DNA of 64,000 bases from Chiloscyllium plagiosum (Eukaryota). The stretch covers positions 10,613,831 to 10,677,830 of the forward strand of contig NC_057751.1 of the NCBI RefSeq assembly GCF_004010195.1. The letters are read 5' to 3'. Below the pieces are notes generated by a model. The model ran no database searches. It saw only the letters and a program-made list of their open reading frames with translations, and was not told where the DNA came from. The translations under genes and the position numbers were made by a program. Positions 20,001 through 40,059 of this stretch are shown in pieces (position 1 is the first letter of the stretch; every line of letters starts with the position of its first letter).

Positions 20001-20009
20001 TGAAGTTTT

Positions 20010-20250
20010 GTTGAGGTTTTGGATGTAGGTTTGCTCGCTGATCCAAAATGTTAATTTCCAGACGTTTCGTTACCTTACTAGGTAACATCTACAGTGGACC
20101 TCATGCGAAGCAATGCTGAAAATTCTTGGTTTCTATTTATATGTTTGGGTATCTTTGGGTTGATGTTATTTCCTGTGGTGAAGTCACTTCCTGTTCCTTT
20201 TTTCAGAGGGTGGTAAATGGGGTCTAACTTGATGTGTTTGTTGATATCAA
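20010..20250 (-). mobile_element. PLE (Poseidon-like) 3' terminal fragment with a hammerhead-like motif
   Basis: Minus strand reads INKHIKLDPIYHPL near 20205-20246, the same motif as at 29626-29666, followed by a terminal region containing the hammerhead-like motif. Confidence 0.75.
20057..20098 (-). ncRNA. Minimal type I hammerhead motif with a core substitution
   Basis: Minus strand: TCCA-CTGTAGA-T-GTTACCT(AGTA)AGGTAAC-GAAAC-GTC-TGGA. Stem II is a perfect 7 bp and stem I is 4 bp, but the core reads CUGUAGA instead of CUGANGA. Confidence 0.65.
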
Positions 20251-20632
20251 CACCTTGGCATGTTTCTTTTTGTGTAATTCTCTTTATTTGTCATCTTGAT
20301 TTAGTAAATTTTCAGTGCCTCTAGAATTTCTTGATGTTTTGAGCCTTTCTTGTCTTGCAAAAGTATTGACAAAAACTCAGTTGCAGAACTTGCAAAAGTG
20401 CACCTTGCTTGAGTGATATTGATCCAGTGATGCAGCTTCTTGCTTCTTTAGCTGATCAACACAATTAAAAGATTGCGTTTGAAGTTTGTGTTTAAAGGCA
20501 TACGTATTTTTGGCAGCTTCAGTATTACCATTTGCTTGGAGTTTATTTACTTAATACAGTGAGGCCCAAGTAGAAACTTGCCACTGTGTCAGCAGACCTG
20601 TTTAAAGAGAACTTGAAATGAAGATTAGATTA

Positions 20633-20806
20633 AAGTTTGTGCGAAGATTTGTAGCTCGGGTGCTCGTTGTTGTGGATCTGTTCGCCGAGCTGGAAGAACA
20701 TCAAAGAAGCGCTTCGCAGGAGGCTCCCAAGCACTGATGATGTCGCCTAGCCAGGGGACGAAACGTTTGCAACAAAACCTTCCAGCTCGGCGAACAGAAC
20801 CACAAC
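20633..20806 (+). mobile_element. Short fold-back PLE derivative with a hammerhead motif, inserted at a SINE tail
   Basis: Inverted arms tgttgtggatctgttcgccgagctggaag / cttccagctcggcgaacagaaccacaaca. Motif GCA-CTGATGA-T-GTCGCCT(AGCC)AGGGGAC-GAAAC-GTT-TGC at 20731-20770. Flanks agattagatta (20622) and agatgagatta (20807). Confidence 0.8.
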
Positions 20807-20825
20807 AGATGAGATTACTTTTTTT

Positions 20826-21133
20826 TTATTAGATTACTTAGTGTGGAAACAGGCCCTTCAGCCCAACAAGTCCACATCGACCCTCCGAAGAGCAACTTAG
20901 CCAGACTCATTCCCCTACCTTTACCCCTTCACCTAACACTTCGGGCAATTTAGCATGGCCAGTTCACCTAACCTGCACATTTTTGGACTGTGGGAGGAAG
21001 CCGGAGCACCCGGAGAAAACCCACGCAGACACTGGGAGAATGTGCAAACTCCACACAGACAGTTGCATGAGGCGGGAATTGAACCCGGGTCTGTGGCGCT
21101 GTGAGGCAGCAGTGCTAACCACTGTGCCACCCA
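20826..21133 (-). mobile_element. HE1-type SINE
   Basis: Near copy of 9231-9546. Confidence 0.9.
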
Positions 21134-21669
21134 CAGGTATAGTGTGTGTGTCCCTTGCTAGTTGAGATCTTGGTCTGCATGGATCTCATTATCTGTTTGT
21201 CCTTGCATGTATGATCCTTTTTCGAATTGACACAGTTAAATAAGAAAAGTCTGAATTGTTTCACATTAGATTTAAGATTGATTGATTGTTCAACTTTGCT
21301 TTAGCTTATTACTTAATTGATGGTGATGCCATTGATGGATCTATGTTTAAGCTATCAAAATGTCTCTCTGTTGTTTGTGCTTTGGACACTTTGATTAGTT
21401 ACTATGTGAATTCGTTTTGATCAGGTCCGATAGTTGTGAGACAGACAAAAGGATCAGAACTGACGTGCATTTCAGTGTAATTTTTTTCATGGGGGGCCAT
21501 GTGACTGAATATTATCTAAAACTCCTGATTTGTGATCTAATTACTGTACCGGTCACAATGTTAAACCTTTGGTAAATCCTTATCTCAACTACTCCTGGCT
21601 ACCAGATAAAGACCAGGAACTACTCTTGAACTTGGCCAGTCTGCAGAGTTGGCTCTGATGAGCTTACAT

Positions 21670-21762
21670 TGAGAGTGTGATGTTGGAAAAGCACAGGAGG
21701 TGAGGCAGCACCTGAGGAGCAGGAGAATCGATGTTTCGGGCTTAAGCCCTTCATCAGGAGTC
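21670..21762 (-). mobile_element. PLE terminal fragment with a decayed hammerhead
   Basis: Minus strand: CTGATGA-A-GGGC(TTAA)GCCC-GAAAC-ATC-GATTCTCC. Same family as 25003-25204. Confidence 0.75.
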
Positions 21763-22439
21763 TGATAAATTTGTTGAAGGTTGTTTTCTGTCCATCTCTG
21801 CCAGAGCTCTGCTGCTGGACCAGGTTGAGTCCTCACTGAGGGAATGGCGGCCATGTGTCCCTTGTAATCCCTCCCTGCTAACACCTCCTAGAATGTTCGC
21901 TGGCCCTGAGCTCATTGATTTTCAGGGTTGAGCTTACAGAATCCACTGGGATCCCGAGTGCCACATGTGGAAAATGCTGGGGCTGCAGTCGATGTCCATT
22001 CCCCCGATGTGTCATGAACATTCCCTTCTCAATATGTGTTCAAGGCAGGAACCCAGGGCTCCAGCGAGTCTGCTGGCTGTACTTCAACACACAAACCAAT
22101 CTCGTTTTGCAGGCCAAGTCCAGCCTTGTCCTTGCCTGCTTTTGTCTTGTGTGGATGTTTTGTGCTTGTCCTGTGCTGAAAGTCTTATCGGGCCTGGCCA
22201 CTCTCTGGTGGCCCATTCTTGTTTCAGGCCTTGCCATTCAAGCACTGGGCCATCAGGCCTCATATCCTACCCCTCGCCTTAAATAAGCAGAGATGTCCTC
22301 CCATTGAAGACTGAGTTCACTGCTCAATGCTATGCTTTTCTCCTGCAGTCTTGACTGATCTCCCACACATGAGGTCCATAAACATGAAAGGTCACGGAAA
22401 CCTCTGCTTCTTGTATTTTAACTCGCACCAGGTCCCTTT

Positions 22440-23010
22440 CACCTATCACCATCATGCTTGCTGACCAGCACTGGTTTCTGGTGAGTGTTTTTGTTTGAAA
22501 TGGAGAAGGCTCTGCCTTGTTTTCACATGTCTCTATGGCCTCACTCCTCCCTACCTTGTATCTCCATCATCCTCCATGATAACACTAATCTAATTCTGCC
22601 TTCCTTATTGTCTTTTATTTTAATTACTCCACTATTGGTAGTCCTATCTTCAGTCCAGAGGTCTGAAATTCCCTGCCTGCATGTCAGTCACTTACGTTGG
22701 TGCTTCCTTTGCAACCAGGAATTATATACCCGGTCAACAAATAGTGAATGGAACAGGAACACGATGTTCAGACCTCCACAGTCAGTTCTGGACTCTGGTA
22801 AAAGCTCACGCCCTTCTGGATCACCTGACCAGCCATCTCCAAGGAACAGCACCCTCAACTAATACATTACAGTCGCTATGCTTGATTTTGCCCTTTGAGA
22901 CACTCCTCATTGAAGCCTACCTTTTGTTGTTCTGATGTCTTTCCAAAAGGTTCGGTGCCACATTCTGTTTTTAATGTGCCACTTTATGACTGGAGGCATT
23001 TCATTACATT
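22440..23010 (+). mobile_element. Decayed L2-type LINE 3' portion
   Basis: Pyrimidine-rich, L2-like 3' sequence ending ...cattacattaaaggggcg; judged by eye. Confidence 0.45.
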
Positions 23011-23807
23011 AAAGGGGCGCAGTAGTTGGAAGCTTTATTTTGACTTCAGTGCTCCTGACCAAGCTGTACATTTTTGAATTAACAAGAAACCAGGAGCATT
23101 TTTTGATCAACTTGGAATGCGGCAGTATAATATTGCAGATGAATCGTGCTTGATCCAAGCAAAACTAAGGCACTGCATAAAGAGAGAAACACTTGGATTG
23201 GTGCCATTTTCTAAAATAAAACTGATTTTTATTGTGAGTGGACTGATCAGCAGTCATTGTAAATCTCTGATCTACTCCTTGTGGAGAGCTATGTCCCACA
23301 AGTTATGATGTTGTCCCTCTTTGTCTCCCTTTGGAACCCACTGGATAAAAGTGTCATTTTAAGTAACAGTATAATCATGTCACTCAGAATTCATCGTGGT
23401 TCTGAAGGTATATTTGCTTCACAATTGCGCTTTGACAATCAGAAATGTAAGTATGCAGTCAAAAGCTGTGTTTTTTTTGCCCTCTTAGAAGTAAAGCCCT
23501 TTTGGGATATAAAGGAGCAAGATGTCAGTTTGATTCCAAGACAGCTTTAACATAGAGGAAGTTGCTTGAAAATTTTATTTTTCCCACCACCTTGTCCAAC
23601 TTTAGCTGGGTTAAGTTCAGTTGCCTCCTGCTGAAAATTGTGGCATTTTCCTGACCTGATTGATGACTATTCTGCATAGCCCAGAACACTTTGAGGTGTA
23701 CCTTTTGAATTATGTTGGTAACTTAGCACAGGTAGAACAAAGACAAAAAAATTTGTTGAAACTTAGCATATTTAACAGATCGAATGATACAGAAACACTT
23801 AACGTTT

Positions 23808-24432
23808 TATAGAGTCATAGAGATGTACAGCATGGAAAGAGACCCTTCGGTCCAACCATTCCATGCCGACCAGATATCCCAACCCAATCTAGTCCCACCT
23901 GCCAGCACCTGGCCCATATCCCTCCAAACACTTCCTGTTCATATACCCATCCAAATGCCTTTTCAATGTTGCAGTTGTACCAGCCTCCACCACTTCCTCT
24001 GGCAGCTCATTCCATAGACGTACCATCCTCTGAGTGGAAATGTTACCACGTAGGTCTCTTTTATATCTTTGCCCTCTCACCTTAAACCTATGTCCTCTAG
24101 TTCTGGACTTCCGACTCCAGGGAAAAGACTTTGCCTATTTACCCTATCCATGCCCCTCATAATTTTGTAAACCTCTATCAGGTCACCCCTCAGCCTCTGA
24201 TGTTCCAGAGAAAACAGCCCCAACCTGTTCAGCCTCTCCCTGTAGCTCAAATCCTCCAACCCTGGCAACATCCTTGTAAATCTTTTCTGAACCCTTTCAA
24301 GTTTCACAACATCTTTCCGATAGGAAGGAGACCAGAATTGCATGCAATATTCCAACAGTGGCCTAACCAATGTCCTGTACAGCCGCAACATGACCTCCCA
24401 ACTCCTGTACTCAATCTGACCAGTAAAGGAAA
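23808..24432 (-). mobile_element. Relatively young 5'-truncated CR1 LINE
   Basis: Long open stretch IEYRSWEVMLRLYRTLVRPLLEYCMQFWSPSYRKDVVKLERVQKRFTRMLPGL, with an intact 3' tail ...ctgtacatctctatgactctat. Confidence 0.93.
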
Positions 24433-25002
24433 TCATACCAAAATTCTTCTTCAGTGCAAGAATTCTGCTTCTCTTCACAGATGCTGCGTTTCTCCAGCAA
24501 TGCCTGTATTTGTTTCAGATTTCCAGCAGCAACAGTCTTTTCCTTTTACAAATTTATAGACTTTATCACCATGCATTAATTGCACTGAACCAGTCAGTCA
24601 TAGTGTTTCGTGCTTCTCTTTATGAAGGAAGTGAAGTTGGGGAATCACTGCCAGTTACCTAACCCTCCCCACCTGCTGCTGTTCGGAGTCTTTTGAGGCA
24701 TTTGTGACTTTTGGCATAGGCCTGTTTGTCATTTGGCTTTTCAGATGTGTGGTATGGTGTGAAGAAGCAGGCACAAGGTACATTCACGTTTTGAAAAAAT
24801 GTGGAAGTAAATTTCCTCAGCTGACCCGTTGGGTAAGCATTAATGAGACAAATGACATCTTAGCACTGCATTGTTGAAAGCTATTTTGAGGAAGGAGGAA
24901 GTCAGTGAGGGTTCCTACTCGAGTTGTCGAGTAATGGTTGTTTAAAAGTGTGCAGTTATGAAAACCATTTTCAGACAACGACATGACTGGCAAATGCATG
25001 TT

Positions 25003-25204
25003 CTGGATCAGTGGTGCTGGAAGAGCACAGCAATTTAGGCAGCATCCAAGGACAGGCAAAATCGACGTTTCGGGCAATCCTGATGAAGGGCTTTTGCCCG
25101 AAACGTCGATTTTGTCTGTCCTCGGACGCTGCCTGAATTGCTGTGCTCTTCCAGCACCACTGATCCAGAATCTGGTTTCCAGCGTCTGCAGTCATTGTTT
25201 TTAT
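25003..25204 (+). mobile_element. Fold-back PLE-derived mini-element with a perfect 16-bp TSD
   Basis: TSD ctggcaaatgcatgtt at 24987-25002 and 25205-25220. Inverted arms of 77 nt (25001-25077 / 25094-25170) differ at 4 positions. Confidence 0.9.
25076..25111 (+). ncRNA. Minimal type I hammerhead ribozyme motif, intact-looking
   Basis: AATC-CTGATGA-A-GGGC(TTTT)GCCC-GAAAC-GTC-GATT. Full core, 4 bp stem I, 4 bp stem II and a vestigial palindromic stem III (ACGU). Predicted cleavage after C25107. Confidence 0.8.
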
Positions 25205-25524
25205 CTGGCAAATGCATGTTTCATTCGATCTCCTCGCCCTCCCATTCCATAATATTCCGTTCCCTGTTGAAATCTTACTCAGTGTCTCTGTTCGACAGAG
25301 TGAATAACTAATTGTTCGAGAATAATGTGGGTGCTGGGACAAGAGGAAGTTCCTTGAGTGTCAGTGTTTCCCATTGGGGAAGCCAAGTCGGTTTTGGGAG
25401 GAGAAAAGGATAGAATGTGGTTGAGTTAGTCAGTCAGATGAGGAAGGATTGAGGCTGTGAAGCTTAATGCAGTGCAAACAGCAACATCTGATTGGGTATG
25501 TGTAAGCAGAGAACAGTTTTGTTT

Positions 25525-25865
25525 TCTTTATTCATAGCTTGTGTGTATCACTGGTTTGGCCAGCATTTGTTACCACAATTGCTTGCCACAATGTGGTCAA
25601 GCTTGTTGCTGTGAGTCTGGAGTCAAGTGTAGGCCAGACCAAACAAGACCAGCAGTTTCCTTCCTGAAAGGACATTTGTGAACCAGATTTTTTTTGCTGG
25701 CATTCAATTGTAGTTTTGTAGTCATCATTAGAATCTTAATTTAACTTTAAAAGTCTGGAATTCAAATTCTACCATTTGCTATGGTGGGTCTCAAACCTGG
25801 GTCCCCAGAATATGACTTGGCTCTTTGGATTAAGATTTTAGTGATAAAAACACTCCAGCATTACC
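25525..25865 (-). mobile_element. tRNA-derived SINE, same family as 18785-19080
   Basis: Shared body and tail, plus a head-like segment atggtgggtctcaaacctgggtccccagaa. Confidence 0.7.
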
Positions 25866-26559
25866 TCCAAAGTAGAAAAGGAAAAGATCTGTTAAAAAAA
25901 GTTATCCCAGCTCTTCGTCTTGCATTTGGATTGGGCTGCATCTTGCAGTTTTCCCAGGTGAGCAACAGTATTCCCCACTGAGGCCTCCACCAAGATTTCT
26001 TCTGCTGACCTCTTGGAAAATTCTTCAAATTTCTGTTTGGCAAGCACTTATTTTAAACTGGTTTGATGGCAGTGTCAAAATAGCACAAGCAGAGATGCAC
26101 TAAAAATAGAAGAGAAATTAAGCTTGCTAGTCTGCAGTTCATGTCTCACTGACAGGAGCGCTCTAATTGCCAATGAAGCATGTTAGGCCTCTCCTCTGCA
26201 GACCTATGCAGCTTATCATCTGACCCTACTTAGCTGCATGACAGCAACTTGGGAGAACAGAGTTCATGTTTTGGAAATAAGTTGAACCCATCTTTTTTGA
26301 TTAAAATTATAATTTGAGTTTTGAACAGACTTTATTCTAAGTTAAGGAAGCACTCAAGAAATGTCCTGCAGTGGTTCAAAAAGACAGCCTAGCAACACCT
26401 TGGCAACACCTATTAGGGACAGGTATGAAATCCTGACCAAGCGAGCAGCACCAGTCCCGTGAAGGAGCCAATCAGGAAGGCTGTATAAGCACAGTCTGCA
26501 AGTTGGTTGGTTGCTTAATATTTGGGCCCTTTGGATTGGGGAATAACTCACCCAGGAGA

Positions 26560-26762
26560 TGACAAGGACGACAGATGCTGGAAAGTCAGAGTTGATCAAA
26601 TGTGGTGCTGGAAAAAAACACAGCAGGTCCGGCAGCAAACAAAGGAGCAAGAGACTCAACATTTTGGGCATGATCCTTCATTAGTCCTGATGAAGGGTCA
26701 TGCCCGAAACATTGAATGTCTTGAGCCCAGATGCTGCCTGATCTGCTGTGCTTTTTCCAGCG
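26560..26762. mobile_element. Older fold-back PLE mini-element with head-to-head hammerhead remnants
   Basis: Arms of about 26607-26684 and 26687-26761. Centre ccttcattag-tc-CTGATGAAGGGTCATGCCCGAAAC. Confidence 0.8.
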
Positions 26763-27664
26763 TGCAAGTCATCGAATCACTCCCTGTTGGTTCAGATCTG
26801 GAGTTTTGTCACCCTGATGTACAGATATGTTCATTTTACCTTGGTGATATTGGGTGTCCCTTTTCTGTTCACCTCATCACTCTATGTTCATTGTATCATG
26901 CAGGCCTGAGCAAATTCGAACCACATCCAGTCCATGAGATCTCTTCTGCAGCCCACACTTGCATATATTTCTGATTGTTTAAATGACTGTCTGTCTGATG
27001 CAGACATACGCAAGTGTATATCTCTGCGAGCTGAGTACGCTTGCACAGCCTCTCTTGGTGTCTGGCAACTTGAGGTCAGGAGTTCTGAAAATACAATTCT
27101 GAGACTATGACTGGAGAATGTACTCCCAGGGAAAATAGAGGTAAAATCCACCCCTGCACTGTGAATTCTAGAAATACCTGTTAGGTCTCGCTGTATCTGT
27201 AAAGAAAGAAACAGAAATAATTTTGACTTGACGATCAGTCTTTGCAGGAGTAAACTGCCAGACTAGCTAAGTATTTCCATCGCTGGAAGTTTTTATTTAC
27301 TTTTAGCTAAGTTGGATGTTGGTAATCAAGAGTCTGGAAGCAGGTCTTTGTTGAGTATGCATTACTGTCATGTTCGACTGGACATAGTGAAGCAGTAAGG
27401 GCAACAAGTTACGTTGTAGATTATTGCAGTTTTTTTGTTAGATTTTGGTTTTGCAAATATATGCAGTTGTTATTCCAAATCATCACTTCATTTTTCACTT
27501 TAGTCTCTTTCTGATATTTTACTCAGCTGTTTAAAAAAAACCAAGAAGCACATTTAGGTTTTCAGTCTTGCACTCATCAGGACAGAATCACCAAAAGTAA
27601 CAAATCTGAGGGAACAACAGTTTATAGTGCATGAGAAGAAGGTGCCGATTATTAGACAAGTAAA

Positions 27665-27945
27665 GGGTTCGATTCCAGCCTCGGATGGAGTTTGCACATT
27701 GTTCCCCTGTCTGCGTGGGTTTCCTCTGAGTGCTCCGGTTTCCTCCCACAGTCTGAAGATGTGCAGGTTAGCTGTATTAGCCATGCAAAATTACCTAGAG
27801 TGTTCAGGGATGTGTAGATTAGGTGCATCAGTGAAGGGTAATGTCGAGTAATAGGGTAGGGGAATGGATCTAGTGGGTGACTGTTCGGGGGGTTGGTGTG
27901 GATGTATTGGGCTGAAGGGTGTGTTTCCACACTGTAGGGATACTG
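27665..27945 (+). mobile_element. HE1-type SINE, 5'-truncated, long subfamily
   Basis: Begins at the B-box GGTTCGATTCC and ends gtttccacactgtaggga. Confidence 0.85.
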
Positions 27946-29248
27946 TGAATAAACTCTGGTAGACATGTTGCAACAGAGAATACACCAGGCAACTTGAAGG
28001 TACTTGAAACTTCAGTTTAACTTCAAGAGAGGGAAGATGACGGTGATCAAGGCATTGTTCTGTTTAATTGAGACAAATGGACTCTTTGTGGCCCTTTTGT
28101 AAATAGATGTCGCTTCAAGAATGTCTAAGTGAGCCATACTCTGATCCTGTTTGGTCTTAAATTGGTTGTTAGTGTAATTATAGTTTTGTTACCCAGTTTG
28201 CTTATTTCCTCACCAAAGACCACAATTCTTGGGGAGTAAAGCTGGTGTTTCTGACATTAGTCCAGGATTTTAACCTGGGACATTGAAGTCTGCATTAGTA
28301 TCGCAATGCCAATTAATTTATTGCTTTTAGACAATAGAATCAAACATATTTATAGTTCCAAAATAAGTTGTGTCTGTCTTCATACTTTGTATGCTTACAT
28401 TGTAACCTCCTGGAGCCACAATTATAACTGAGAAAATTTTGTGAAGTGACGTGGTGAGAAAAGATATTCTCCAAGAGTAGAGAATGCTTGTTTGAGATGC
28501 AACGGACTTGCTCAAATTCATACGGGTGGAGATAAGCAAAACAAGCAGCAACTGTTCCTCTATGGCAGATGACCGTTAAAAGTACTGGATTTAGCAGAAC
28601 CTGACCAAACCTTGCTTCAAAATGATGATGCTGGCCAAGGGATTGAAATAGCAAACTGAAGCACCAGCACCTGCAGTGAAAGTGCATGACTGAAAATATC
28701 TGCAAGCAATCTTGTTTTAACATTTTGTGGTAGCCATTTCAGTGTTTCTGTGCTTAAGTTTGTATTGAAGAGCATCTTCTCTTTCTGCTGGAGGTACAGC
28801 TCAGCTTTACATCTTCAGATGAACCATTTTGGCCATGATGACAAGTGAGCAGTGTATAATTTCAAGCTATGGTCTTGTGATTTGAGAAAATTAAAAAAAT
28901 AACAGCATGTTCCCAAGTATGGGATAGATTCCACATGTACTCGATAGGGTCTCTTTGGAAATATGCTGTGAGGTTATTAAATCCTGAAATGAGGTAGAGA
29001 GGCGATGTACTGTCCATAAGGTAGAGTGGCTAAAATATCTTTTAGTCACTACAGATTTGCTTTCTTGTGGTCATTGCTGCACCAACATTTGTAAATTGCA
29101 GTGCAGTATTTATTTTGGCAAGGTGAAATGAAAATACTCTAATGGAAATCTGAAACACAAGAAAATGCACTGAACAGATCAGTCAACATCTGTGGAGAGA
29201 GAAATAAAATCCTATCAGGGTTTAATCGCAGTATGAAAGAGGAGATAT

Positions 29249-29845
29249 TCAAAGTTTGTGAGAAGATTTGTAGCTCAGGCGCTCGTTGTTGTGGTTCTGT
29301 TCGCCGAGCTGGGAATTTGTGTTGCAGGAGTTTCATCCCCTGTCTATGTGACATCCTCAGTGCTTGGGAGCCTCCTGTGAAGCGCTTCTGTGATCTTTCC
29401 TCCGGCATTTGTAGTGGTTTGTCTCTGCCGCTTCCGGTTGTCAGTTCCAGCTGTCCGTTGAACACCAACCAGCCACGAAACGACACGACCAGCTATCCTT
29501 AGTAGCCACACACGCAGATGACAAGCAACATGAGTTTGACTGGGTCAACACTACTATTAGAGGACAAGCCAAACAGAGAACAGCCAGGGAATTCCTAGAG
29601 GCATGGCACTCATCCACAGATTCAATCAATAAGCACATCGACCTGGACCCAATATACCGGCCACTGCAACGGACAGCTGGAACTGACAACTGGAAGCGGC
29701 AGAGACAAACCACTACAAATGCCGGAGGAAAGATCACAGAAGCGCTTCACAGGAGGCTCCCAAGCACTGAGGATGTCACCTAGACAGGGAACGAAACGTC
29801 TGCAACACAAATTACCAGCTTGGCGAACAGAACCACAACAACGAG
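29249..29845 (+). mobile_element. Penelope-like element 3' end (GIY-YIG C-terminus) with an inverted pseudo-LTR
   Basis: Inverted arms of 179 nt at 29282-29460 and 29667-29845. Stop-free frame 29460-29783 (EHQPATKRHDQLSLVATH...REFLEAWHSSTDSINKHIDLDPIYRPL...EDVT*). Flanks gaggagatat (29239) and gaggaaatat (29843). Hammerhead-like motif at 29764-29803. Confidence 0.9.
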
Positions 29846-31339
29846 GAAATATAATTTTGTTGGTGTATGGAATGAAGTATGATAGAATTATCATAATTCT
29901 ATCTTTGTTTCAATTGGTTTTCTTTTCCACTTGGCTCTCTAAACAAGTTTGATTGCTCAGAGCTGGCCCAGTTTGTCCACTTCTGGGCTGAAATCAGCCT
30001 TGATAGTTTTCTTTCATACTGACCAGTAATATTTTTACAGAAAGGTGACATTTCCATTCTGCTTTGTGCCTGGTAATTAGTGGATGTTTGAGGGTTTCTG
30101 TCAGGCACTATTATTGCATAAAGCTGTCTGTTGTACAAGCCATCTGCAAGGAAATAAATATTGTTTTACGAAAGCCACAAAAACCCCTAAAACAGTCAGT
30201 TTCTCTGTGAGTGGTGCTTTATAAGGTGTTTATGGCTCCTGCAACCATTGTTTGTCTGAGGCAACTTCAGTTTCAGTTCTTGGAGATCTATTAACTTGAG
30301 TTGTAATTTTCTTCTCTTTCCTTGTCTTAATTTTTCTTCATTTTGAAACCTTGAATTCTCATCACATCCTCATTGAATGATGGTGTCCAATGGTGATGAA
30401 TGGCTTAACTGTGCACACAGCTGAAATTGTATTGTCCAACTTTAATGATATCTGCACTCATGTTAATTTCAATCACTCCTACGCAGTGATGACTAAATGT
30501 GCAACAGCAAAATTATTGAGCAATAAAATTATTTTAGATCTTTAACAGATTTGTTTGTTATCATAACCCAGAGATTTACAAAATGAGCATGAAGTTTCCA
30601 CATTAGCCATCGTGTGAGTATTTTTCTGCAGTGCGGATGTTACCATGGTGGGAGGGAGTGCACAGGAGATGCTTTTAGATCACTAACCACAATGTGTACA
30701 AGGGAGACTTTGGGTGTCTATTATGGATGTATGCTATGTAGAAAGATTTGCATTTGGAGGATTTTTTTCCAACTATATTTTTTTCTAGATCTTTTCTAAT
30801 GAACTCATTCACCAACATTGTAACGCATCCCAGGAGCAGGTAGCACTTGAATCCAGGTCTCTTGGCTCAGAGGTCAGGACACTGCCAGTGTGCCTTAAGA
30901 GCCCTCATTGTTGTTTAATTATAGTCTAGTACAGAGGCAAGCATTTCCAACCCACCTCGCTAACTTGTCGGCCAACTGCTTGCAATTTCCCATCTGCAGT
31001 TACAGCAGACAACAAAACATCTGGACTGCGCGCAGGTTTATTTCTTAGTAATATGGGATGCAATGCAAAAGTATTATGTCTGCCACAGGCAGTGAAATGC
31101 ACACCAAAAGAAGTGCTGGGATCACAATGTTGTCTCAGCAAATATGAGCAAAACTTCCTCCAAGCAAGTCTTCCCTGTTTAGATCCCTGCATGGCAGAGC
31201 AGGTTCAAGGGGCTGAATGGCCGCCTCCTGTTCCGATTTGTTATGACGTGTAGAGATCTTTGCTGTGCTGATCAGAACGCTTCTTTGTGATCTTCTCCAG
31301 ATACTTTCACCTGTTTGCTGGAGAGATGGGGTTACAGGT

Positions 31340-32140
31340 TCCTGCGAAATTTTCTTTCCACAAGTAGGACACTGGCATTGCTGGCCAGAATGTTTTTGGC
31401 TGACCCTTGTCGAGAAGGTGGTGGTGAGCGGCAGCAATCCCCCTGCTGTTGGTTGAATCACGACGCCATTGTGGAGGATATGCAGGATTTTGACCCAGTG
31501 ACAGTGAAGGAATGCTGATCTGTTTCCACGTCAGGCTGATGAGTGGCTTGGAGGGGAATTACCAGGCGGCAGAGTTCCCACCTATCTGTAGATAGAAGTG
31601 ATTGTGGGTTTGGAGGGTCTTCTGTAAGCATCTTGTAGATAGTTTGTTTCTGAGCATTGGTGGTGGAGGAATTGAATGTTTGTGGAAGTGGTGCAGTCAA
31701 GTGAGCTCCTTTTGTCCTGGATGGTGTCAAGCTTCTTGAATGTTGTTTGAGCTGCTGGCAAATGGGGGATATTCCATCACAGTCCTGACTTGTGTCCTGT
31801 GAATGGAGCGTCAGGAAGTGACGTCTTCCTAGCCTGTGATCTGTTCTTGTCACCACTGTTTTTATGTGACGAGTCCACTTGAGTTTCTGGTTAACAGTAA
31901 CCCCAAGGACCTTGATAATGGGGATTACAGTGACCGTAACGCCATTGAATGTCGAATGGTGTTGGTTACATTGCCTCTTGTTGGAAATGGTCATTGCCTG
32001 GCATATGTGTGGTGTGCATGTTGCTTACTACTTGTCATCCCAAGATGCCATTCTTGCTGTATTTGAACAAGGAGTCCTTCAGTATCTGAGGAGTCACAAA
32101 TGATGCTGATCATTGTGCAGTCATTGGCGAACATATCCGT
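31340..32140 (-). mobile_element. Crack/L2-like (CR1 superfamily) LINE 3' part
   Basis: MTISNKR...FNGVTVTVIPIIKVLGVTVNQKLKWTRHIKTV is the post-RT LGV..D..L.W..HI motif. The 3' end resembles the SINE tails at 18785 and 25525. Confidence 0.75.
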
Positions 32141-33064
32141 TCCTTCAACAATCCTTGTTGTTTTAAAGTGCTGTTTTCCTGTTTTTAGTCTATAATCAAA
32201 AGTATAGAACAGTAAAAAGATGCCCTCCTTTACAATGACTTGTATTCAGTTCTGTGGTTGAATTTTATTTTTCCATTCATTGGTGACTTATTTAGCAGAT
32301 TGCTCGTCAAGTTGTTCATTTTATTATTTTGAGTTTTTTTTAAAAACTGGCTTCATTGTCTCAATTTTTCAAGATAATTGCTTCAATTCCATATTCAAAT
32401 CTAAAACAGACAACTCAATTCCACGTTTATTCACATAAGTGCACAGACTTTAAGCAAAACAAACCCACAATTTGTGCGTAAGCCTTGAATAGATAGCACA
32501 TATCCTCAGAAGGCCTGGGCAGAAATGCTGTAAACAAAGTATTATTTGTGCAATTATTTGAGGCTCAGTCAACTGAATGGCCATTTGTTTTTGTCTTGTG
32601 TGGGAGGTAACTGCATAAGAATACATTTTAGGCACAGTTCAAAAAGAACAGGAGGTGGAATCATATGCCTGTAATGTTGATCCCTGTTGAATTACTTATC
32701 TCTGAAATGTTGGGTTTTCTGTATGATGAGACATTAGGTTTTTTTTGTTTTACCTGTATACCACTTACAATCTTCCTATGGGGGATGTTAAGTTGGGTGT
32801 AGCTATACAGCTAAAATAATACCAGGATAAGTTATTTTGTAACTTTAAAGTCAAATGGGATTGTGCTTTCTACAGTTCAGCTACATGGGATTGTTATTTT
32901 GGAAGCAGTGAGGTGAATAATTTACAAGAGGCAAGTACCAGGAATCTTTGAGTTCAGGGAAAAGTAACAACCTTCTGAATTTGCTGTTTAAGTTTCAGTT
33001 TCACAAACTTGTAAGACAGTGTACCAGAGACTACTACAAGCCTACAAAAAAGAAACCTCTCTGA

Positions 33065-33416
33065 CATAGAATCCCTACAGTGTGGAAACTGGCCCTTTGG
33101 CCCAACAAGTCCATACTGACACTTGGAAGAGTAACCCACCCAGACCCATTCCCTTACCCTGCTTCCCTACATTTCCCCTAACTAATGCACCTAACTTACA
33201 CATCCCTGACCACTGTGGACAATTTAGCATGGCCAACTCACCTAACCTGCACATCTTTGGACTGTGGGAGGAAACTGGAGCACCCAGAGGAAACCCACGC
33301 AGACTCGGGGAGAATGTGCAAACTCCACACAGACAGTCGCCTGAGGCTGGAATCGAACCCGGGTCCCTGGTGCTGTGAGGCAGCAGTGCTAACCACTGAG
33401 CCACCGTGCCGCCCCC
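33065..33416 (-). mobile_element. Full-length HE1-type SINE, long subfamily
   Basis: Intact A-box (TGGCTCAGTGG) and B-box (GGTTCGATTCC); tail gtttccacactgtagggattctatg. Confidence 0.92.
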
Positions 33417-34506
33417 AATTTGTCTTTTAGTGCGAAAAAAGGCAAAATACCTGGGAGACTTCAGACAAAAAATTCTACAATAAGAAAAGACCCAGCTCCA
33501 CTGAATGTTGAATCGAAGATTGACTATCATTCTGTGGGAAACATTGTCTCATTATTATGAAAATACCAGAAGACTGCGAGAAATAACTTAACCCACTCGT
33601 GTGCCCTGGACTTGGACATATAGAATTTATTTTTCAACCCATCATATTTGTGTCAAACCATGTGGTTTTGGTCTGTCTTACTTGTGAATGATGGATATAT
33701 ATTTGGGGTCTCAAAGATGTATAGCTTTCATCCCATGATAGGAAATCAATAATCTGTTTTCAGCCGATTTTTATCGCATTAGTTGCTGAGAACAAATATG
33801 TGTTTCTATTTATCACAAAACATGGTGTGGATTAGTTTTAGCCTGAATAATAGGGTGTGGTAAAACATTGTGGTTCATTTTGATAGTTATACGTTTGTAA
33901 CAGCTTGTGGCATATTAAGATTCAATTATCAATACACTTTTTCCAGTTGACTCGTAAAATTGTTATGTTTGGAACAGGAATTTTCCCTACCTTGTTTAAA
34001 CATACATGAAAGAAAATATTCTATGTTAAGCTTGAGGTTAGCTTATGACGAACTTCGGTTTACCAATCCTTTCATGGCTGCAATATGAGGTGTTAGGAAC
34101 GGATGACCTGCAAGTCAAGAGTGCTTGTATTTCAGATTTCTCAACCATTCAAGTATTGAAATCTGTGCATTCTTGTTACTTCTCTCAAACCTGCAACATA
34201 CTTAGTGGTTTAAAATTAATAATGTTGTTTTGATTTGTGGAGGACCTTTCCTTTTGTTTTAATATCGCTTGCTCTTTGATTCAGATATTGCATTACCAAG
34301 AGATTGTATTTATGAAGAATAAATACATTGCAAATAGGCAAAGTTAAATATATCTCACTGCTGTTTTCTTGCCTGCCTCTGACTGGGCAGATGTATTACT
34401 CCATCAGACATATGTTAGACATGTCCACCTTTTACCTCCAGGTATTTTTGCCATTAAATTTTAAATAGGAAATAATATGGTTTGAAATCTTTTGTTTTAT
34501 TAACAG

Positions 34507-34695
34507 ATTAACCTGAATAAAAATGGTGAATATTGGTGGAATGCAATTCTCGAAGGTGAAGAGACAATTGACATAGAGAAGATAAACAAAGAACGGTCAA
34601 TGGCAACAGTGGATGAGGAGGAACATGCAGTGCTGGACAGACTAACATTTGATTATCATCAGAAAATGCAGGGCAAACCACAGAGCCATGAAATG
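34507..34695 (+). CDS. nudcd3: NUDCD3 coding exon 5 (INLNKNGEYWWNAILEGEETIDIEKINKERSMATVDEEEHAVLDRLTFDYHQKMQGKPQSHEM)
   Basis: Acceptor ttaacAG ends at 34506, donor GTaagc at 34696. Length 189 nt, phase 0. Very similar to vertebrate NUDCD3. Not in the ORF track. Confidence 0.96.
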
Positions 34696-35499
34696 GTAAG
34701 CAAGTTATCAGTAATGGGGAGCTGGCTGCTGATCCCTGAACACTTGGCTGAAAAGGTATCAATGTTGAAATAGGTAATGCTCCCTGTCCATATCCTTTTT
34801 ATTTTGGTCACACTTGGATTATCAAAATCTATCATGGGAGAAGTTGTAGGACTGTGGCACCATGTGAAGCTAGTGGATTCGCTGCACATTTGGCTGGAAA
34901 ATGTCTTTGTCTCCTTTTTTTTCCCCCTCCCTTGACAACTGCAAGTTTTAATGCCCAAAATAAGTTTTGAAAATACTCAGTTATGAATTTATTGAGTCTT
35001 TTAAAACTTCCACCAGAGTTTTCCTTTTGAAGGTGTCATTTGGGTTTTTAATTTTTTGCTTTGAATTGTCACTTCTACGTGAGAATGTCGGCAGTGTTTG
35101 TGTCACCAACATGTAATTGTGTGAAATAATAACTTCTTTTCACTTTAGTCTCTGTCGTAATTTGTTTCTTTATTTCCAAGTTATCTGAGGCCAAGTTAGG
35201 TGACAAATGTAATCCAGGTCAAATGCATTTTCACTCAGTGACCGTTCATGTGAAGTCCACACATTTTCTAACATTGCAGGTTGCAAAACTTCATGTTTTC
35301 TGAGTTAATCAATCTTTTTGTTGATCCCACTTGGTGTGGTTTCCCAGCCAATAGCAAATGGGTTTTTATTTTCTGAATTATCTTTCTAAGCCTTCTTGCC
35401 ATTGGGCTGAGTAAAGCATTCAAGACAACAACTTCAATCCAGATTTCTACTGATTCCCACTGCAAGGACCTTTGTGCATCTATCAGCTGTGCACAGATT

Positions 35500-36060
35500 C
35501 CTGATTATGGATGCAAACAGAACTTGATGGAAAAACTCAGGCAGCATCTGTGGAGAGAAAGCAGAGTTTTCAGCTCCAGTGATTCTTCTTCAGAATTGAT
35601 TGAAACGAGGAAAGGATGGGTAAATATGCTGAAGAGTGGCAAAAGCGGGCGGAGTAAATGATAGTTGGGGATTGATCCCAGAGAGAGAACAATTTTGGGT
35701 GGACCAAGGAAGGGGTAAAAGTCAGCCTGGGTGAATCAGTAACTACAAATGAGGACCATTAATAGCTGACAATGGGTTGGTTGTGAGAGCAGCCTATATG
35801 ATGACAAGGCTGGGCGTGTGGGGTTAGGGGTGAGGACATGGGCAAGGGTGCTCAGGCCTCAAATTATTGAACTGGATATTGAGGCCTGAAGGTTACAGGG
35901 GGCCCAAGCGACAAATGAGATGCTGTTCTTTTAGTTTATGCTGAACTTCACTGAGCATTGCAGCAAGCCTGAGATGTTGGTGAGGGAACACTGTGGTGTG
36001 TTGAAATGACAGGCAACCTGGAGCTCAGTCATACTTGCAAACATGTGAACAGAACGTCGG
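35500..36060 (-). mobile_element. Decayed Neptune-type PLE endonuclease and terminal region
   Basis: Minus strand LQVACHFNTPQCSLTNISGLLQCS...EQHLICRLGPL.PSGLNIQF, then a terminal sequence ctctccacagatgctgcc. Confidence 0.75.
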
Positions 36061-37471
36061 GTGTTTGGGGGTTGGGGTGTGTGTTGCAGGGCCACCCATG
36101 GAGGTGGCCAAGGCTCCCAGTGACTCCGTATGACAGGGCACAGCCCCGTAAACTGGCTGTGTGACTGGGAGCGCCAGTGCCTGGCGGAGGATGAGAGGCG
36201 TGACCCTGGGCCTGAGACCGGCTTCAGAGGAAGCGAGGCCGAGGCCCAGAGACAACGGCTTTGGCCGTGCTTGGCTACTGCCATCACGCAGCTTTGCAAA
36301 AGTACCGAGGATGGGGTAGAGACAGAGATCTGGGGGGAATGGGGGTGTGAGGTTGGGGTCTGGGGGCAGCAGGAGGCGAGATGGGGAGGGGTCAGTTTGG
36401 CAGAAAGAGGAACTGGGTCTGAGGTAGAGAGACATGGGCAGCAGGGGGAAGAGACAGTGGAGGGAGGAGAGAGGTGAGATTGGTGGGGAGAGACCTGGGG
36501 AGAGGCTCAGGATGATGTAAGTTATGTGGGAGAGTGGATAAGGACGGGAGGTGGGGATATAAAAGACAGAAAAGTTGAGTTAGGCAAGAGAGAGGTGAGT
36601 GGAGGAGGTAGGCAGAGGGTGGGTGAGGAGAACTATCGATAAGGAGGTTAGGACAAGACACACAACTGGTTTGAGGCTAAGGCAACTGAGATGAACCCTG
36701 TTGTTGAAGCCAAGCGTGTCCCCTAGCGGAGTATAAGCGGTCAGCGAGCTCAGGGTTGCCAGGAACAAGGTTCAGCAGAATGCCAGGCTTTGCACCAACG
36801 AGTACTGGACACAGCTAAGTGAGGACATTCAGACGGCCATGTAACAGGGAACATTAGGGGAATCAAGGCATCAAGAGGCACTAGGACCAGCTCAGAGCAA
36901 GACAGCCCTCCCTCAAATCTTCTACTGGGGAAGAAATCACAAAGGCCAGCAGATGGAGAGGTGGTTGAACAATACTCTGATCTTTACTCCAGACAGCACA
37001 CCGTGTCCGCTTAAGCGCTTGATGCCATCACGTGCTGGCCGACCATGGACGAGCTAGATGCAGAGCCATCAGTCGAAGAGCTCAGCAAGGCCATTGACAG
37101 CCTGGCCTCAGGTAAGCCCTGGGTAGTAACAGGATTCCTCCTGATCTGATCAAGTGCTGCAAGACTAGCTTGCTGCTCCCATTTCATGAAGTCCCCTGCC
37201 AGTGCTGGCAAGAAGGAGCTGTACCCACGGGCCATGAGGAATGCCAAGAGCATTACCCTCTACAAGAACAAGGGTGAGAGAAGCGACTGCAGCATCTACA
37301 GAGGCACCTCTCCCTCAACATTTGGCAAAGCCTTTGCTCGAGTCATTTTGACTCGCCTGCACAAACTGGCGGAACACGTATACCCAGAGTCACAGTGTGG
37401 CTTCTGAGCTAAAAGGTCAACAGTAGACATGCAGTTTTCCCTTCGTCAACTGCAGGAGAAGTGCAGAGAAC

Positions 37472-38190
37472 AAATGCGAGGTGCTGCATTTTGGGAAAGC
37501 AAATCTGAGCAGGACTTACACACTTAATGGTAAGGTCCTTGGGAGTGTTGCTGAACAAAGAACTTGGAGTGCAGGTTCATAGCTCCTTGAAAGTGGAGTC
37601 GCAGGTAGATAGGATAGTGAAGAAGGTGTTTTGGTTAGGCCACTTTTGGAATATTGCATGCGATTCTGGTCTCCTTCCTATCGGACAGATGTTGTGAAAC
37701 TTGAAAGGGTTCAGAAAAGATTCACAAGGATGATGCCAGGGTTGGAGGATTTGAACTACAGGGAGAGGCTGAACAGGCTGAAGGTGTTTTCCCTGGAGCA
37801 TCAGAGCCTGAGAGGTGACCTTATAGAAGTTTACAAAATTGAGGGGCATGGACAGGGTAAATAGATAAAGTCTTTTCCCTGGGGTGGGGAGCCCAGAACT
37901 AGAGGGCATAGGTTTAGGGTGAGAGGGGAAAGATATAAGAGAGACCTAAGGGGCAACCTTTTCACGCAGAGGGTGGTACATGTAAGGAATGAGCTGCCAG
38001 AGGAAGTGGTGGAAGCTGGTACAATTGCAACATTTAAAAGGCATCTGGATGGGTATATGAATAGGAAGGGTTTGGAGGGAAATGGGCCGGGTGCTGGCAG
38101 GTGGGACTAGATTAGGTTGGGATATCTGGTCTGCGTGGATGGGTTGGACTGAGGGGTCTGTTTCCATGCTGTACATCTCTATGACTCCAT
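37472..38190 (+). mobile_element. Young 5'-truncated CR1 inserted in the RTE RT domain
   Basis: Starts at KCEVLHF and ends ctctatgactccat. The RTE frame LQEKCREQ resumes as ...LYVAFI after it, with a short aaca duplication. Confidence 0.9.
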
Positions 38191-38300
38191 AACAGAAAAT
38201 GCTCTGTATGTCGCTTTCATCCACCTCGCAAGACATTCGACCTGGTCAGCAGGAACGATCTTTTCATGGTTCTCCTGAAGATCGGCTCCCCACCAAAACT

Positions 38301-38498
38301 ACACAAAAGTGAGGACTGCAGATGCTGGAAACCAGAGTTCAGATCAGAGTGGTGCAGGAAAAGCACAGCTGGTCAGGCAGCATCCGAGTAGCAGGAAAAT
38401 CGATGTTTCGGGCAAAAGCTGCGCAAAATGTCAGTATTTTTTTCCTGCTCCTCGGAGGCTGCCTGACCTGCGCTTTTCCAGCACCATTCTGATCTGAA
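38301..38498 (-). mobile_element. Fold-back PLE mini-element with a perfect 15-bp TSD, nested in the RTE
   Basis: TSD ctccccaccaaaact at 38286-38300 and 38499-38513. Inverted arms are present but the hammerhead core is deleted. Removing it restores RTE LLKIGSPPKLLSMIESFH. Confidence 0.9.
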
Positions 38499-39350
38499 CT
38501 CCCCACCAAAACTGCTGAGCATGATAGAATCCTTCCACAGTAACACAAAGGGGACAGTGCAGTTCAACAGCAACTCTTCTGAACCCTTCAACATCCACAG
38601 TGGCGTCAAACAAGGCTGCATCCTTGCTCCCACACTCTTGGGGATTTTGTTTTCTTGCTGTGCTCCTGAAACATGCCTTTGGCACTGCAGTGGAGGCAAT
38701 TTACCTACGCACAAGATCAGAGGGCAGGCTCTTCAACCTGGCCCACCTCAGAGCCAAGACAAATGTATGTGTGGCACTCATCAAGGACATGTTGTTTGCT
38801 GATGATGCTGAAGTTGCAACACACACCCAGCAGGAACTCCAGTCACCGATAGACCACCTCTCCGAAGCTTGCAAGGTTTTCAGGTGACTATCAGTCTGAA
38901 GATGATGTGCATCCTGGGACAGGACACAGAGTAACTGCCGGTCATCACCTTTGACGACGACAAACTCAATGTGGTCCATCAGTTTACGTCCCTGGGTCTA
39001 CCATCACTGATAATCTCTCCTTGGACACAGATTGATAAGAGGATCGGGAAAGCAGCCTCAACTCTTGCTCACGTCACGACTCGAGTATGGACAAATCCCA
39101 AGCTGAGAGTGAAGACAGAAGTGTCAGTCTACAACGCCTGTGTCATTAGCACACTGCTGTACAGCAGTGAAATGTGGACTACATATGCCAGACAAGAGAG
39201 AGGACCGAACACCTTCCACTTGAGTATCCGCTGTATCCTGGTACATCAGCGTGTCCAACGCAGCGGTCCTATCTCATGCTGGCCTTCCCAAAATGTACAC
39301 TCTGCTCAGGCAGCAGAGACTGTGTGCTGGCTGGGCCATGTTAATCATCC

Positions 39351-39491
39351 AAGGAACAGGAGAATTGACGTTTCGGGCATAAGCCCCAAAACATTGATTC
39401 TCCTGCTCCTTGGATGCTGCCTGACCTGCTGCGCTTTTCCAGCAACATATTTTTCAGCTCTGATCTCCAGCATCTGCAGTCCTCGCTTTCT
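39351..39491 (+). mobile_element. Fold-back PLE mini-element nested in the RTE
   Basis: TSD ccatgttaa(t/c)catcc at 39336-39350 and 39492-39506. Short inverted arm; the CUGANGA core is missing. Confidence 0.85.
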
Positions 39492-40059
39492 CCATGTTAA
39501 CCATCCCCATGGATATCCTCTGTGGAGAGCTCGTATCTGGGAAGAGACCCACTGAGCATCTCCAGCTGCGCTACAAGGACATCTGCATCAGGGACGTGAA
39601 GGCGTTTGATATTGTTACAGAGTCCTGGGAATGGCTTGCAGCCGATCGCACAAGATGGCGAAGCACCCTGAACCAACCCCTCAAACAGGAGGAAAGAAGC
39701 TGATGAGCGGCCACACGGGAAGGAGTGCAGCAGTTCCAGCAGATAAACGACCGCACACAGATGTGACCTCTGCGACCGTGACTGTCACTCCAGTATTGGT
39801 GTCTCCAGTCAGAATGATGTTGCTTCAGGGAAGCAGAAAGCCAGAACAACTAGGTTGCTACCCATGGTCAGCCATGACCGAAAGGGCCTCACACAAACAG
39901 AATTTAGGTGTTCTGCAAAGCGGTACCCAGTGTGTGTCATCTTTCATTGTAGAGCAGACCTCTTTGTGAGCAGTGAATACAGTCGACTCTCTTGAGTCAA
40001 ATGCAGGCAAATGGCTGCTACAACTGAAAGGTGTTTTGGGCCTTGGGTTGAGTTGGGAG

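Follow-up and report, generated by a model that had tools for sequence, protein, structure and literature searches.

The hammerhead ribozymes closest to those considered here are those of the minimal type I found in pLTRs of metazoan PLEs; these lack helix III, have an extra base between positions 9 and 10.1, a G10.1-C11.1 pair and a palindrome at 15.2-16.2, and combine a 7-bp helix II with a short helix I (Cervera and de la Pena, 2014; PMC4209133). Many divergent families occur per genome (6 in coelacanth, 8 in Xenopus), mostly as solo copies, or paired on opposite strands at distances of 100-700 bp; two supplement files of that paper mention no shark. In the Anolis Poseidon element PAc, the ORF begins at hammerhead stem II and encodes an RT with a C-terminal GIY-YIG endonuclease, and the tail lies within about the first 110 nt of this ORF; the PAc protein cuts and extends both strands, starting at two internal RNA sites which bound the tail (Frangieh et al., 2024; PMC11167929, the main text of which is silent on inverted inserts and target duplications). 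Insertions of EN+ PLEs have been published as head-to-head arms comprising an inverted, 5'-truncated pLTR that holds the first ORF codons, with a one-sided tail of 30-40 bp and a target duplication (Arkhipova et al., 2013, PMC3846280; Craig et al., 2021, PMC8557442). Lastly, non-LTR retrozymes of animals, which are non-coding, hammerhead-bearing, PLE-related and defined as head-to-tail tandem units, are present in the one chondrichthyan sampled (bioRxiv 10.64898/2026.07.22.740005).

The window (the whole 64-kb stretch of bamboo-shark DNA that was analysed) resembles each of these systems in part. Its motifs share the features of PLE minimal hammerheads listed above, including the mostly solo or opposite-strand arrangement and, in families B and C, the 7-bp helix II; family A departs in its 4-bp helix II and weak helix I. 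The likeness to PAc covers the ORF start, the position of the tail and the coupling of RT to GIY-YIG, although arms of family B end at +70 and +106 from the ATG, whereas PAc starts at +111-118. The insertions follow the EN+ PLE pattern in arms, tail, duplication and pLTR content, except that most consist of two arms alone (140-200 bp), and that clear duplications measure 15-16 bp, whereas those of the Adineta examples span 8-10 bp. Retrozymes are matched in composition, but the copies here are solo or head-to-head. The insertion pattern is already published, as is the presence of multiple hammerhead families per genome (PMC4209133). A literature search, with Repbase/Dfam and subscription papers outside its scope, found no paper on shark PLE hammerheads, and the present results extend these ribozymes to a cartilaginous fish, at unusually high copy number. 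We consider it very probable that the motifs are truncated 3' ends of PLEs bearing the known minimal type I hammerhead (demonstrably in family B, likely in C and A), which were inserted at separate times and are mostly decaying.

Hammerhead motifs and chance expectation

Seven hammerhead-like cores start at 20094 (-), 20734 (+), 21757 (-), 25080 (+), 26687 (+), 29360 (-) and 29767 (+). A descriptor scan and self-comparison of the window recovered every core position given in an earlier sequence-only reading, together with the core-less relatives that it had placed at 38301 and 39351 (Table 1). That reading had described CUGNNGA followed by one extra residue, stem II and GAAAC; the extra base after position 9 and GAAAC indeed occur in all seven motifs, but CUGNNGA masks the loss of the conserved A6 in family C (CUGUAGA). 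CUGANGA and U16.1 are each present in six of the seven motifs and both in five, one core position being failed by C (20094) and one by 29360, in which U16.1 is lost. The G10.1-C11.1 pair is G-C in six and G.U in one, and the palindromic CG which replaces helix III (15.2-16.2) is kept in four (20094, 20734, 25080, 29767) and lost in three.

The stems are less well preserved than the claim that they 'differ yet still pair' had implied. The 7-bp stem II of C is clean, but that of B carries a purine-G mismatch at pair 4 in all three copies, and a second mismatch in two of them; in family A, described as GGGC-N4-GCCC with 26687 decayed, 26687 reads GGGU-CAU-GCCC. Helix I, which in PLE minimal hammerheads is 4-5 bp long, has 4 bp in C, 3 bp in B and 2 bp in two of the three A copies (21757 and 26687, which have also lost the CG palindrome after GAAA), while the 4-bp case in A was made by a junction: half of the AATC strand of 25080 is junctional, with its AA belonging to the terminus of the inverted left arm, and read contigs show homology to the family from 25078 onward. 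At 20734 the motif reads GUU. Of the seven, only 25080 combines a full core, clean stem II, CG palindrome, GUC and a stem I of at least 3 bp. The motifs are real but mostly worn, and few copies would still cut RNA.

Table 1. Features of the window, with positions counted from its first letter.
Feature	Position	Strand	Details
Family C single-armed Poseidon-type PLE 3' end	20000..20250 (ends approximate)	-	last endonuclease codons, hammerhead, ORF-start segment
C hammerhead-like motif	20053..20098	-	core starts 20094; CUGUAGA (A6 lost), 7-bp clean stem II, GUC, 4-bp stem I
Family B insertion B1	20632..20807		antisense arm with tail 20632-20696, sense arm 20697-20807
B1 hammerhead motif	20731..20770	+	core starts 20734; G.G mismatch in stem II, GUU, 3-bp stem I
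Family A single arm (A21), old copy	21637..21759	-	core starts 21757; clean 4-bp stem II, AUC, 2-bp stem I
Family A palindrome A25	25003-25204 in 24987..25220		short arm in antisense, followed by a sense arm that has a 36-nt tail; flanked by exact 16-bp target duplications at 24987-25002 and 25205-25220
A25 hammerhead motif	25076..25111	+	core starts 25080; predicted sequestered in folded insert
Family A decayed palindrome A26	26560..26761		sense core 26687; mutated antisense core remnant ends near 26684
Family B insertion B2	29249..29842		tailed inverted arm 29249-29460, followed by the element's 3' end in sense
B2 antisense-arm hammerhead motif	29324..29363	-	core starts 29360; U16.1 lost; ATG at 29354
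B2 open frame, 107 codons	29460..29780	+	GIY-YIG endonuclease ORF C-terminus; through hammerhead core to TAG in stem II/loop
B2 sense hammerhead motif	29764..29803	+	core starts 29767, with ATG at 29773; GUC; two mismatches in stem II
Host exon, NudC family, like KIAA1068	34507..34695	+	AG/GT ends
Family D (D35), absent from the earlier list	35516..35976	-	decayed A cousin; remnant of a dead hammerhead near 35590
Family A core-less palindrome A38	38301-38498 in 38286..38513		exact 15-bp target duplications; 34-nt tail on left arm
Family A core-less palindrome A39	39351-39491 in 39336..39506		15-bp target duplications, 1 mismatch; left arm 34 nt

Such worn motifs raise the question of chance matches to a loose descriptor. 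An untuned descriptor with a stem II of at least 4 bp matched four times, against a shuffled mean of 0.63 (maximum 2, 100 shuffles), and still twice when stem I was demanded, against 0.03 in shuffles; a descriptor tuned on the window's own motifs gave seven matches against 0.01 (0 of 200 shuffles as high), but is circular. The proposed comparison with shuffled sequence therefore favours the stricter descriptors, which exceeded all shuffles, and not the loosest (stem II at least 3 bp, stem I not demanded), whose four matches were not significant (shuffled mean 1.91, maximum 6). That last result speaks for chance, as do the absence of hammerhead families among 13 Rfam covariance-model matches at E<=5, and folding z-scores for isolated motifs of -1.8 to +0.2, which are uninformative. 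Each motif, however, occupies the same position within its repeat family, in B and C where a PLE ORF ends. Chance is refuted by the existence of repeat families and by the attached PLE ORF, and we assign it practically no weight. Two relaxed matches were discarded, at 2444 (+) for want of G10.1 and stem I, and at 51872 (+) for a core mismatch, and weak Rfam microRNA matches at 25049 and 39346 merely reflect the palindromes.

All seven cores of the 64-kb window lie within 20057-29803, so the density quoted earlier for 20 kb is approximately threefold too high; the probability of such clustering in 10 kb is about 0.0004, by a post hoc statistic. The covariation previously cited as support for a selected RNA structure amounts to two compensatory pairs between two lineages, B and C, and 61 of 500 shuffles of the four sequences scored as high, which is not significant; the stems of A do not count as covariation, because A cannot be aligned to B or C outside the core. 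Structural selection is known in the parent elements (PMC4209133), but the covariation within the window is too thin to support it. The hammerhead bases are also coding in two protein frames, at an ORF end and an ORF start. A deeper alignment was precluded because pattern-scan matches were not homologous to the window beyond the core: scans of metagenome contigs for the B/C pattern and of viral contigs for the A pattern returned none, and none of four A-like matches in metagenome contigs extended further.

Families and parent elements

The distinction of three families is borne out, in that A resembles B and C only at shuffle level beyond the core (DNA), and B resembles C at a level reached in 21 of 300 shuffles. 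Their assignment to PLEs, which had been asserted for all three, differs in strength among them. For family B it is settled by the attached ORF: the 29460-29780 frame is 90% identical to P0001, a bamboo shark RT + GIY-YIG protein, and the ATG at 29354 opens 36 codons, of which 32 are identical to residues 19-54 of P0013 (a 656-aa PLE RT ORF). Related proteins match RVT_1, and GIY-YIG weakly (E 0.003-0.03, under the cut-off); the B fragment itself was not recognised by Pfam. The CX2-5CxxC linker that marks Neptune/Nematis is absent before the endonuclease in P0001, P0006 and P0009. Because an endonuclease fragment is attached, and an ATG within the hammerhead opens the RT ORF, B is a Penelope/Poseidon end.

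Family C is matched by P0009 in a tblastn comparison (19994-20245, 51% identity, E 4e-16), and unique contigs begin at 20217-20226; the overlap of its pLTR/tail with the ORF start is by position only. These alignments support the view that C is a family related to B and likewise a PLE end. None of the family A copies in the window carries an attached ORF, and the connection of A to PLEs runs through its anatomy and through its decayed cousin D, which retains a broken endonuclease-like C-terminus at 35857-35976. The broken frame of D matches two unannotated whale-shark gene models (E 3e-5 and 2e-6), one of which resembles a PLE RT at E 0.59 only; a protein search with the D fragment found no match, and Pfam did not recognise the whale-shark models. 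By this indirect route, family A is likely to be a PLE end.

Insertion anatomy and integration

Arms are arranged head-to-head (inverted) in six of eight insertions, and a one-sided tail of 34-37 nt is found in four of the six two-armed cases, with arm-end offsets of 36 nt in A25, 34 in A38, 36 in B2 and about 36 in B1. A39 differs, its short arm reaching 23 nt beyond the AAA of the core against 104, which is at odds with a fixed-tail rule. The centres differ among all six. Target duplications exceed chance in three of ten elements tested (A25, 16/16 nt; A38, 15/15; A39, 14/15; among 400 random positions, 4 reached a score of at least 10), and none was found at A21, A26, C or D35. Flank repeats of 11 nt at B1 and 10 nt at B2 (29239-29248, 29843-29852), each with one mismatch, were rejected as target duplications and are within chance, as scores of at least 7 occur at 57 of 400 random positions.

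We infer, with slightly better than even confidence, that head-to-head inserts arise when the PLE protein primes from both cut DNA ends. In the parent element, the hammerhead would span both the stop that closes one ORF copy and the start codon at which the following tandem copy begins, as is seen for B, and on published evidence it is expected to cleave only weakly, either as a dimer or with help from the protein of the element. That protein would make a staggered cut of approximately 15-16 nt in the two strands; reverse transcription would be primed from both DNA ends, at two fixed RNA sites 34-37 nt apart; and both copies would halt near the hammerhead, to be joined at a variable centre. 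Priming from both ends and joining would therefore yield an inverted arm, a one-sided tail and a target duplication. After insertion the copies decay; in the palindromes, pairing with the antisense arm is predicted to silence the ribozyme.

The same PLE origin could instead have produced the inverted arm by self-priming, through fold-back on one template or cDNA, a route that Arkhipova et al. put forward for Adineta elements on the basis of palindromes seen at inverted junctions (PMC3846280). The arms of A25 and B2 are 95-96% complementary (96% over 179 nt in B2), which would suit fold-back, as it would any copies made in the same event. However, the variable centres, with the core often deleted from one or both arms, count against self-priming, as does the near-constant 34-37 nt difference between outer ends, which two start sites explain directly, and PAc extends both strands in vitro (PMC11167929). 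We regard self-priming as unlikely, though it retains a substantial share of our belief. As a natural data set, very large numbers of independent insertions whose ends can be measured could settle whether PLEs integrate by twin priming or by self-priming.

For family A, a further alternative is a non-autonomous palindromic unit that copies itself in the manner of a retrozyme or MITE. Its lack of an attached ORF would fit, as would its abundance, which approximates that of B, and the more than 1000 contigs per run that stop matching 2 nt upstream of the core. Cut-and-paste MITEs have symmetric terminal inverted repeats and a short target duplication of fixed length; the ends here are offset by 34-37 nt or more and the duplications span 15-16 bp, both of which are unlike cut-and-paste elements. 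Within the window, each palindrome has a centre of its own and no pair coincides at both ends, and self-comparison revealed no head-to-tail arrays, copies being solo or inverted only. Self-copying of A accordingly seems improbable to us, and integration of PLE ends by priming from both DNA ends remains the preferred account.

Copy number and the host locus

Read depth and window density together suggest 10^4-10^5 copies per family, above published counts, with summed contig depth taken as an order of magnitude and not as a copy number. The published descriptor matches approximately 4,000 sites in coelacanth and 9,000 in Xenopus tropicalis (PMC4209133), against an order of 10^5 here by a different method. 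In a related species, one contig stops matching the window at 24986 and another, of equal depth, resumes at about 25205; these two contig ends suggest an empty A25 site, and B1 is likely to be absent there as well, while 21731-21759 of the old family A copy is also present. A broader proposal, which we advance tentatively and at rather less than even confidence, is that bamboo-shark genomes contain approximately 10^5 PLE-end micro-insertions, 10-100 times published vertebrate hammerhead counts, which were still forming after the species split, and whose anatomy (outer ends 34-37 nt apart, a 15-16 bp duplication, unique centres near the hammerhead) records priming on both strands. If true, the long-noted structure of inverted pLTR plus tail would be explained, the hammerhead would mark where reverse transcription stops or starts and would not act as a cutter, and shark introns would carry a huge load of near-perfect RNA hairpins of 70-180 bp.

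The elements appear to lie in introns of a plus-strand gene, which invites the alternative that dispersed hammerheads work in the host, cutting intronic pre-mRNA under selection at their loci. Four of the seven cores (20734, 25080, 26687, 29767) are sense to the apparent host transcript and one, 25080, is complete, yet six of seven are damaged, 25080 and 29767 are predicted to be sequestered by the upstream antisense arm, and A25 and B1 are apparently absent in the related species. Moreover, the minimal hammerheads of metazoans show no activity in vitro when monomeric (PMC4209133), and the PAc hammerhead needs its protein (PMC11167929). A host function is, in our estimate, very improbable.

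The 'very large' ribozyme load predicted earlier for this lineage stands for DNA motifs, of the order of 10^5, but not for working ribozymes, as six of seven motifs carry damage and the two best palindromes lose the fold, stem II having a predicted pairing probability of 0 in the folded A25 and B2 inserts. What the window suggests is an accumulation of relics in DNA; it does not show that active ribozymes are numerous. The folded B1 insert is predicted to keep most of stem II (0.8-0.95), with stem I at about 0.15.

Hammerhead motifs and their condition

The motifs are real, and they lie in the ends of Penelope-like elements (PLEs) in family B and probably in C and A. The sequence-only reading had placed hammerheads of several PLE families here, and seven core-bearing motifs were recovered where it had located them, all confined to 20057-29803, with none in the other 54 kb of the window. 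With a stem II of at least 4 bp, an untuned descriptor returned four matches against a shuffled mean of 0.63 (maximum 2, 100 shuffles), and with stem I required two against 0.03, while a descriptor tuned on these motifs returned seven against 0.01 (0/200 shuffles). Stricter descriptors separate the window from shuffled sequence, but the loosest untuned setting shows no excess (4 vs 1.91). Further relaxed matches at 2444 and 51872 were left out of the motif set, and an Rfam search of the window gave no hammerhead match. One extra base follows the core in all seven motifs, as had been claimed; the CUGANGA core, the G10.1-C11.1 pair and U16.1 are each kept in six, a stem II without mismatch and a CG palindrome after GAAA each in four, and all features combined in one.

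The clustering of all seven motifs within 10 kb has a post hoc P of about 0.0004, and reflects either insertion bias or chance. Motifs resembling those of family A, with a stem II of 4 bp, also occur on unrelated metagenome contigs (L001-L004), three of them having a 6-7 bp stem I; these contigs share no homology with the window past the core.

Features of the window, with core-bearing motifs assigned to insertions by position
Feature	Position	Strand	Core-bearing motif	Remark
A21	21637-21759	-	21757 (-)	single arm
A25	24987-25220		25080 (+)	head-to-head arms
A26	26560-26761		26687 (+)	head-to-head arms
A38	38286-38513			head-to-head arms
A39	39336-39506			head-to-head arms
B1	20632-20807		20734 (+)	head-to-head arms
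B2	29249-29842		29360 (-), 29767 (+)	head-to-head arms
C	20000-20250	-	20094 (-)	single arm
D35 (D copy)	35516-35976	-		broken endonuclease-like C-terminus
D copy	40064-40365	+		decayed
D copy	58577-58829	-		decayed
D fragments	near 24478-24539 and 29143-29206
D-type fragment	17735-17909	+		broken, endonuclease-like
Host exon	34507-34695	+		matches NudC-family protein KIAA1068, E 1.4e-7
SINE-like copy	20824-21131			eight other places
LINE-like element	36900-39900			decayed
Direct duplication	42457-42842			~190 nt, 98% identical

Family identity

The open frame of B2 (29460-29780) matches the end of P0001 at 90% identity, P0001 being a related protein with reverse transcriptase (RT) and a GIY-YIG-type segment (VYKIPCxxCxxHYIGQT; Pfam GIY-YIG match weak). 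It crosses the hammerhead core, with a TAG in stem II/loop as its stop. Read in a different frame, the 36 codons that begin with an ATG at core position 9 match residues 19-54 of P0013, a 656-aa RT ORF whose identity to P0001 is 92% across 223 residues. The B motif thus covers the stop of one ORF together with the opening of the following one, which should be expected for the pseudo-LTR (pLTR) of a tandem PLE. The ORF of PAc, a Poseidon-type PLE of Anolis, likewise begins at the hammerhead, there at stem II (PMC11167929). Family C matches related protein P0009 (19994-20245; 51%, E 4e-16) with the same stop/start layout. The Neptune-type linker is absent from the B/C-related PLE proteins examined, pointing, at the level of sequence, to a putative Penelope/Poseidon affiliation.

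In B and C (29767-29783; 20078-20094) the stop in stem II/loop lies 8 nt past the first base of the next ATG, so that two protein frames run through the hammerhead; this overlap could couple translation of tandem copies. The stop codon in stem II/loop is read through in P0009. The B/C endonuclease C-terminus recurs in annotated shark host-gene isoforms (P0002, P0007, P0008, P0011, P0012), which suggests exonised PLE ends or gene-model errors.

Past the core, family A has nothing in common with B or C, in agreement with its proposed separate standing, and no ORF is attached to its copies in the window. Beyond the core it is related to D, a fourth, fully decayed, older family with dead hammerhead remnants. 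The broken frame of D35, ~250 nt upstream, matches two unannotated whale-shark models, one of which begins with a weakly RT-like stretch (E 0.59), and is presumably a Neptune-type endonuclease end. The second D-type fragment (63-65% to two whale-shark gene models) overlaps a 33-nt inverted repeat (17677-17709 / 17833-17865); there is also a short RT-like match, at 864-914.

Insertion anatomy and proposed mechanism

Arms stand head to head in six of the eight insertions, and the outer end of one arm exceeds the other by 36 (A25), 34 (A38), 36 (B2) and about 36 nt (B1), with A39 differing at 81 nt. Target duplications flank A25 (16/16 nt), A38 (15/15) and A39 (14/15), where 4 of 400 random positions scored at least 10, two of these 16; the 10-11 nt flank repeats of B1 and B2 do not exceed chance, and no target duplication was seen at A21, A26, C or D35. 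In X15, a related-species run, the match of a 1013-nt contig breaks off at 24986, leaving 432 nt, and a piece of a contig of equal depth (14.7) ends 32 nt from 25236; from these breaks at A25 we infer an empty site with a single duplication copy. Another contig ceases matching at 20632 with 36 nt left over; B1 is likely absent in that species, while A21 and C appear common to it. This pattern of an inverted, truncated pLTR, a 30-40 bp tail at one end and a duplication is already published for EN+ PLE insertions (PMC8557442, PMC3846280).

The PLE identity of B, the tails, the duplications and the decay are established. In published work PAc is described as cutting and extending both strands, with two internal RNA start sites bounding the tail and a hammerhead that depends on the element's own protein and that insertion in vitro can do without (PMC11167929). 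Metazoan minimal hammerheads are described as having no activity alone and little as dimers (PMC4209133; PMC6765202). If priming began at both ends of a staggered cut, the left arm would be antisense and the right arm sense, tails outward, and the six inserts are arranged in this way; two cDNAs joined near the hammerhead would yield variable, often core-less centres. We lean slightly towards this route, and regard self-priming, in place of priming from both cut ends, as a rather unlikely origin of these inserts.

Covariation and stem I of family A

Covariation had been offered as support for a selected RNA structure. B aligns with C across the motif with two differing compensatory pairs, one per stem, and the pairing structure has 82% of cells paired vs 30-46% in slid versions, above all of them; the pairs exist, but the alignment holds four sequences and 61 of 500 shuffles equal them. 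Stem II pair 4 is a purine-G mismatch in all three B copies. The AATC strand ascribed to stem I of A proves to be a junction product, since GGGCAA closes the inverted left arm and TCCTGATG opens the right one. Judged by contig joints from three DNA runs, the family is entered at 25078. In these runs, 1223, 1315 and 1026 records cease to match at position 21759, which is 2 nt upstream of the core, and the loose-end line there has low agreement (0.35-0.37) and the same beginning in all three. This fits a mix of truncations and continuing family sequence, in which case stem I of A would be weak.

Genome-wide load

Scaling seven motifs per 64 kb to 3.85 Gb, a size possibly of another species (PMC7677710), gives 4x10^5 (95% interval 1.7-8.7x10^5). 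Summed contig depth over single-copy flanks, which is no copy number and indicates orders of magnitude only, gave 5.5x10^4-2.5x10^5 for the A25 bin, 2x10^4-2.3x10^5 for B1 and 5x10^3-1.6x10^4 for C (three DNA runs); as a rough check, the same ratio for the SINE, 2.3-8.5x10^5, agrees with its nine window copies. Descriptor counts in the literature stand at about 4,000 in coelacanth (6 families) and 9,000 in Xenopus (8 families), and the presence of minimal hammerheads at PLE ends, with several families in one genome, and solo and opposite-strand copies are likewise on record (PMC4209133). We found no shark-specific report in the literature searched. Of the very large ribozyme load proposed from motif density, a high genome-wide motif count is probable, but a small proportion of motifs is both complete and unsequestered, and none of the seven here is. 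In whole-insert folding, the hammerhead stems have zero pairing probability in A25 and B2, and B1 retains stem II and little stem I.

Genomic setting

The DNA of the window is intronic and comes from a vertebrate. Its PLE fragment has its closest protein relatives in gene models from Chiloscyllium punctatum (76-95% identity) and further carpet sharks, which makes the genome bamboo-shark-like. We take the NudC-family exon to be NUDCD3. An abundant SINE-like repeat of ~300 bp has nine window copies, one of them 16 nt from B1. SINE/LINE ends are joined to family A starts in 8-31 read contigs per run, probably through chance adjacency of abundant repeats. A38 and A39 both lie inside the decayed LINE-like element, which by its motifs we assume to be RTE-type.
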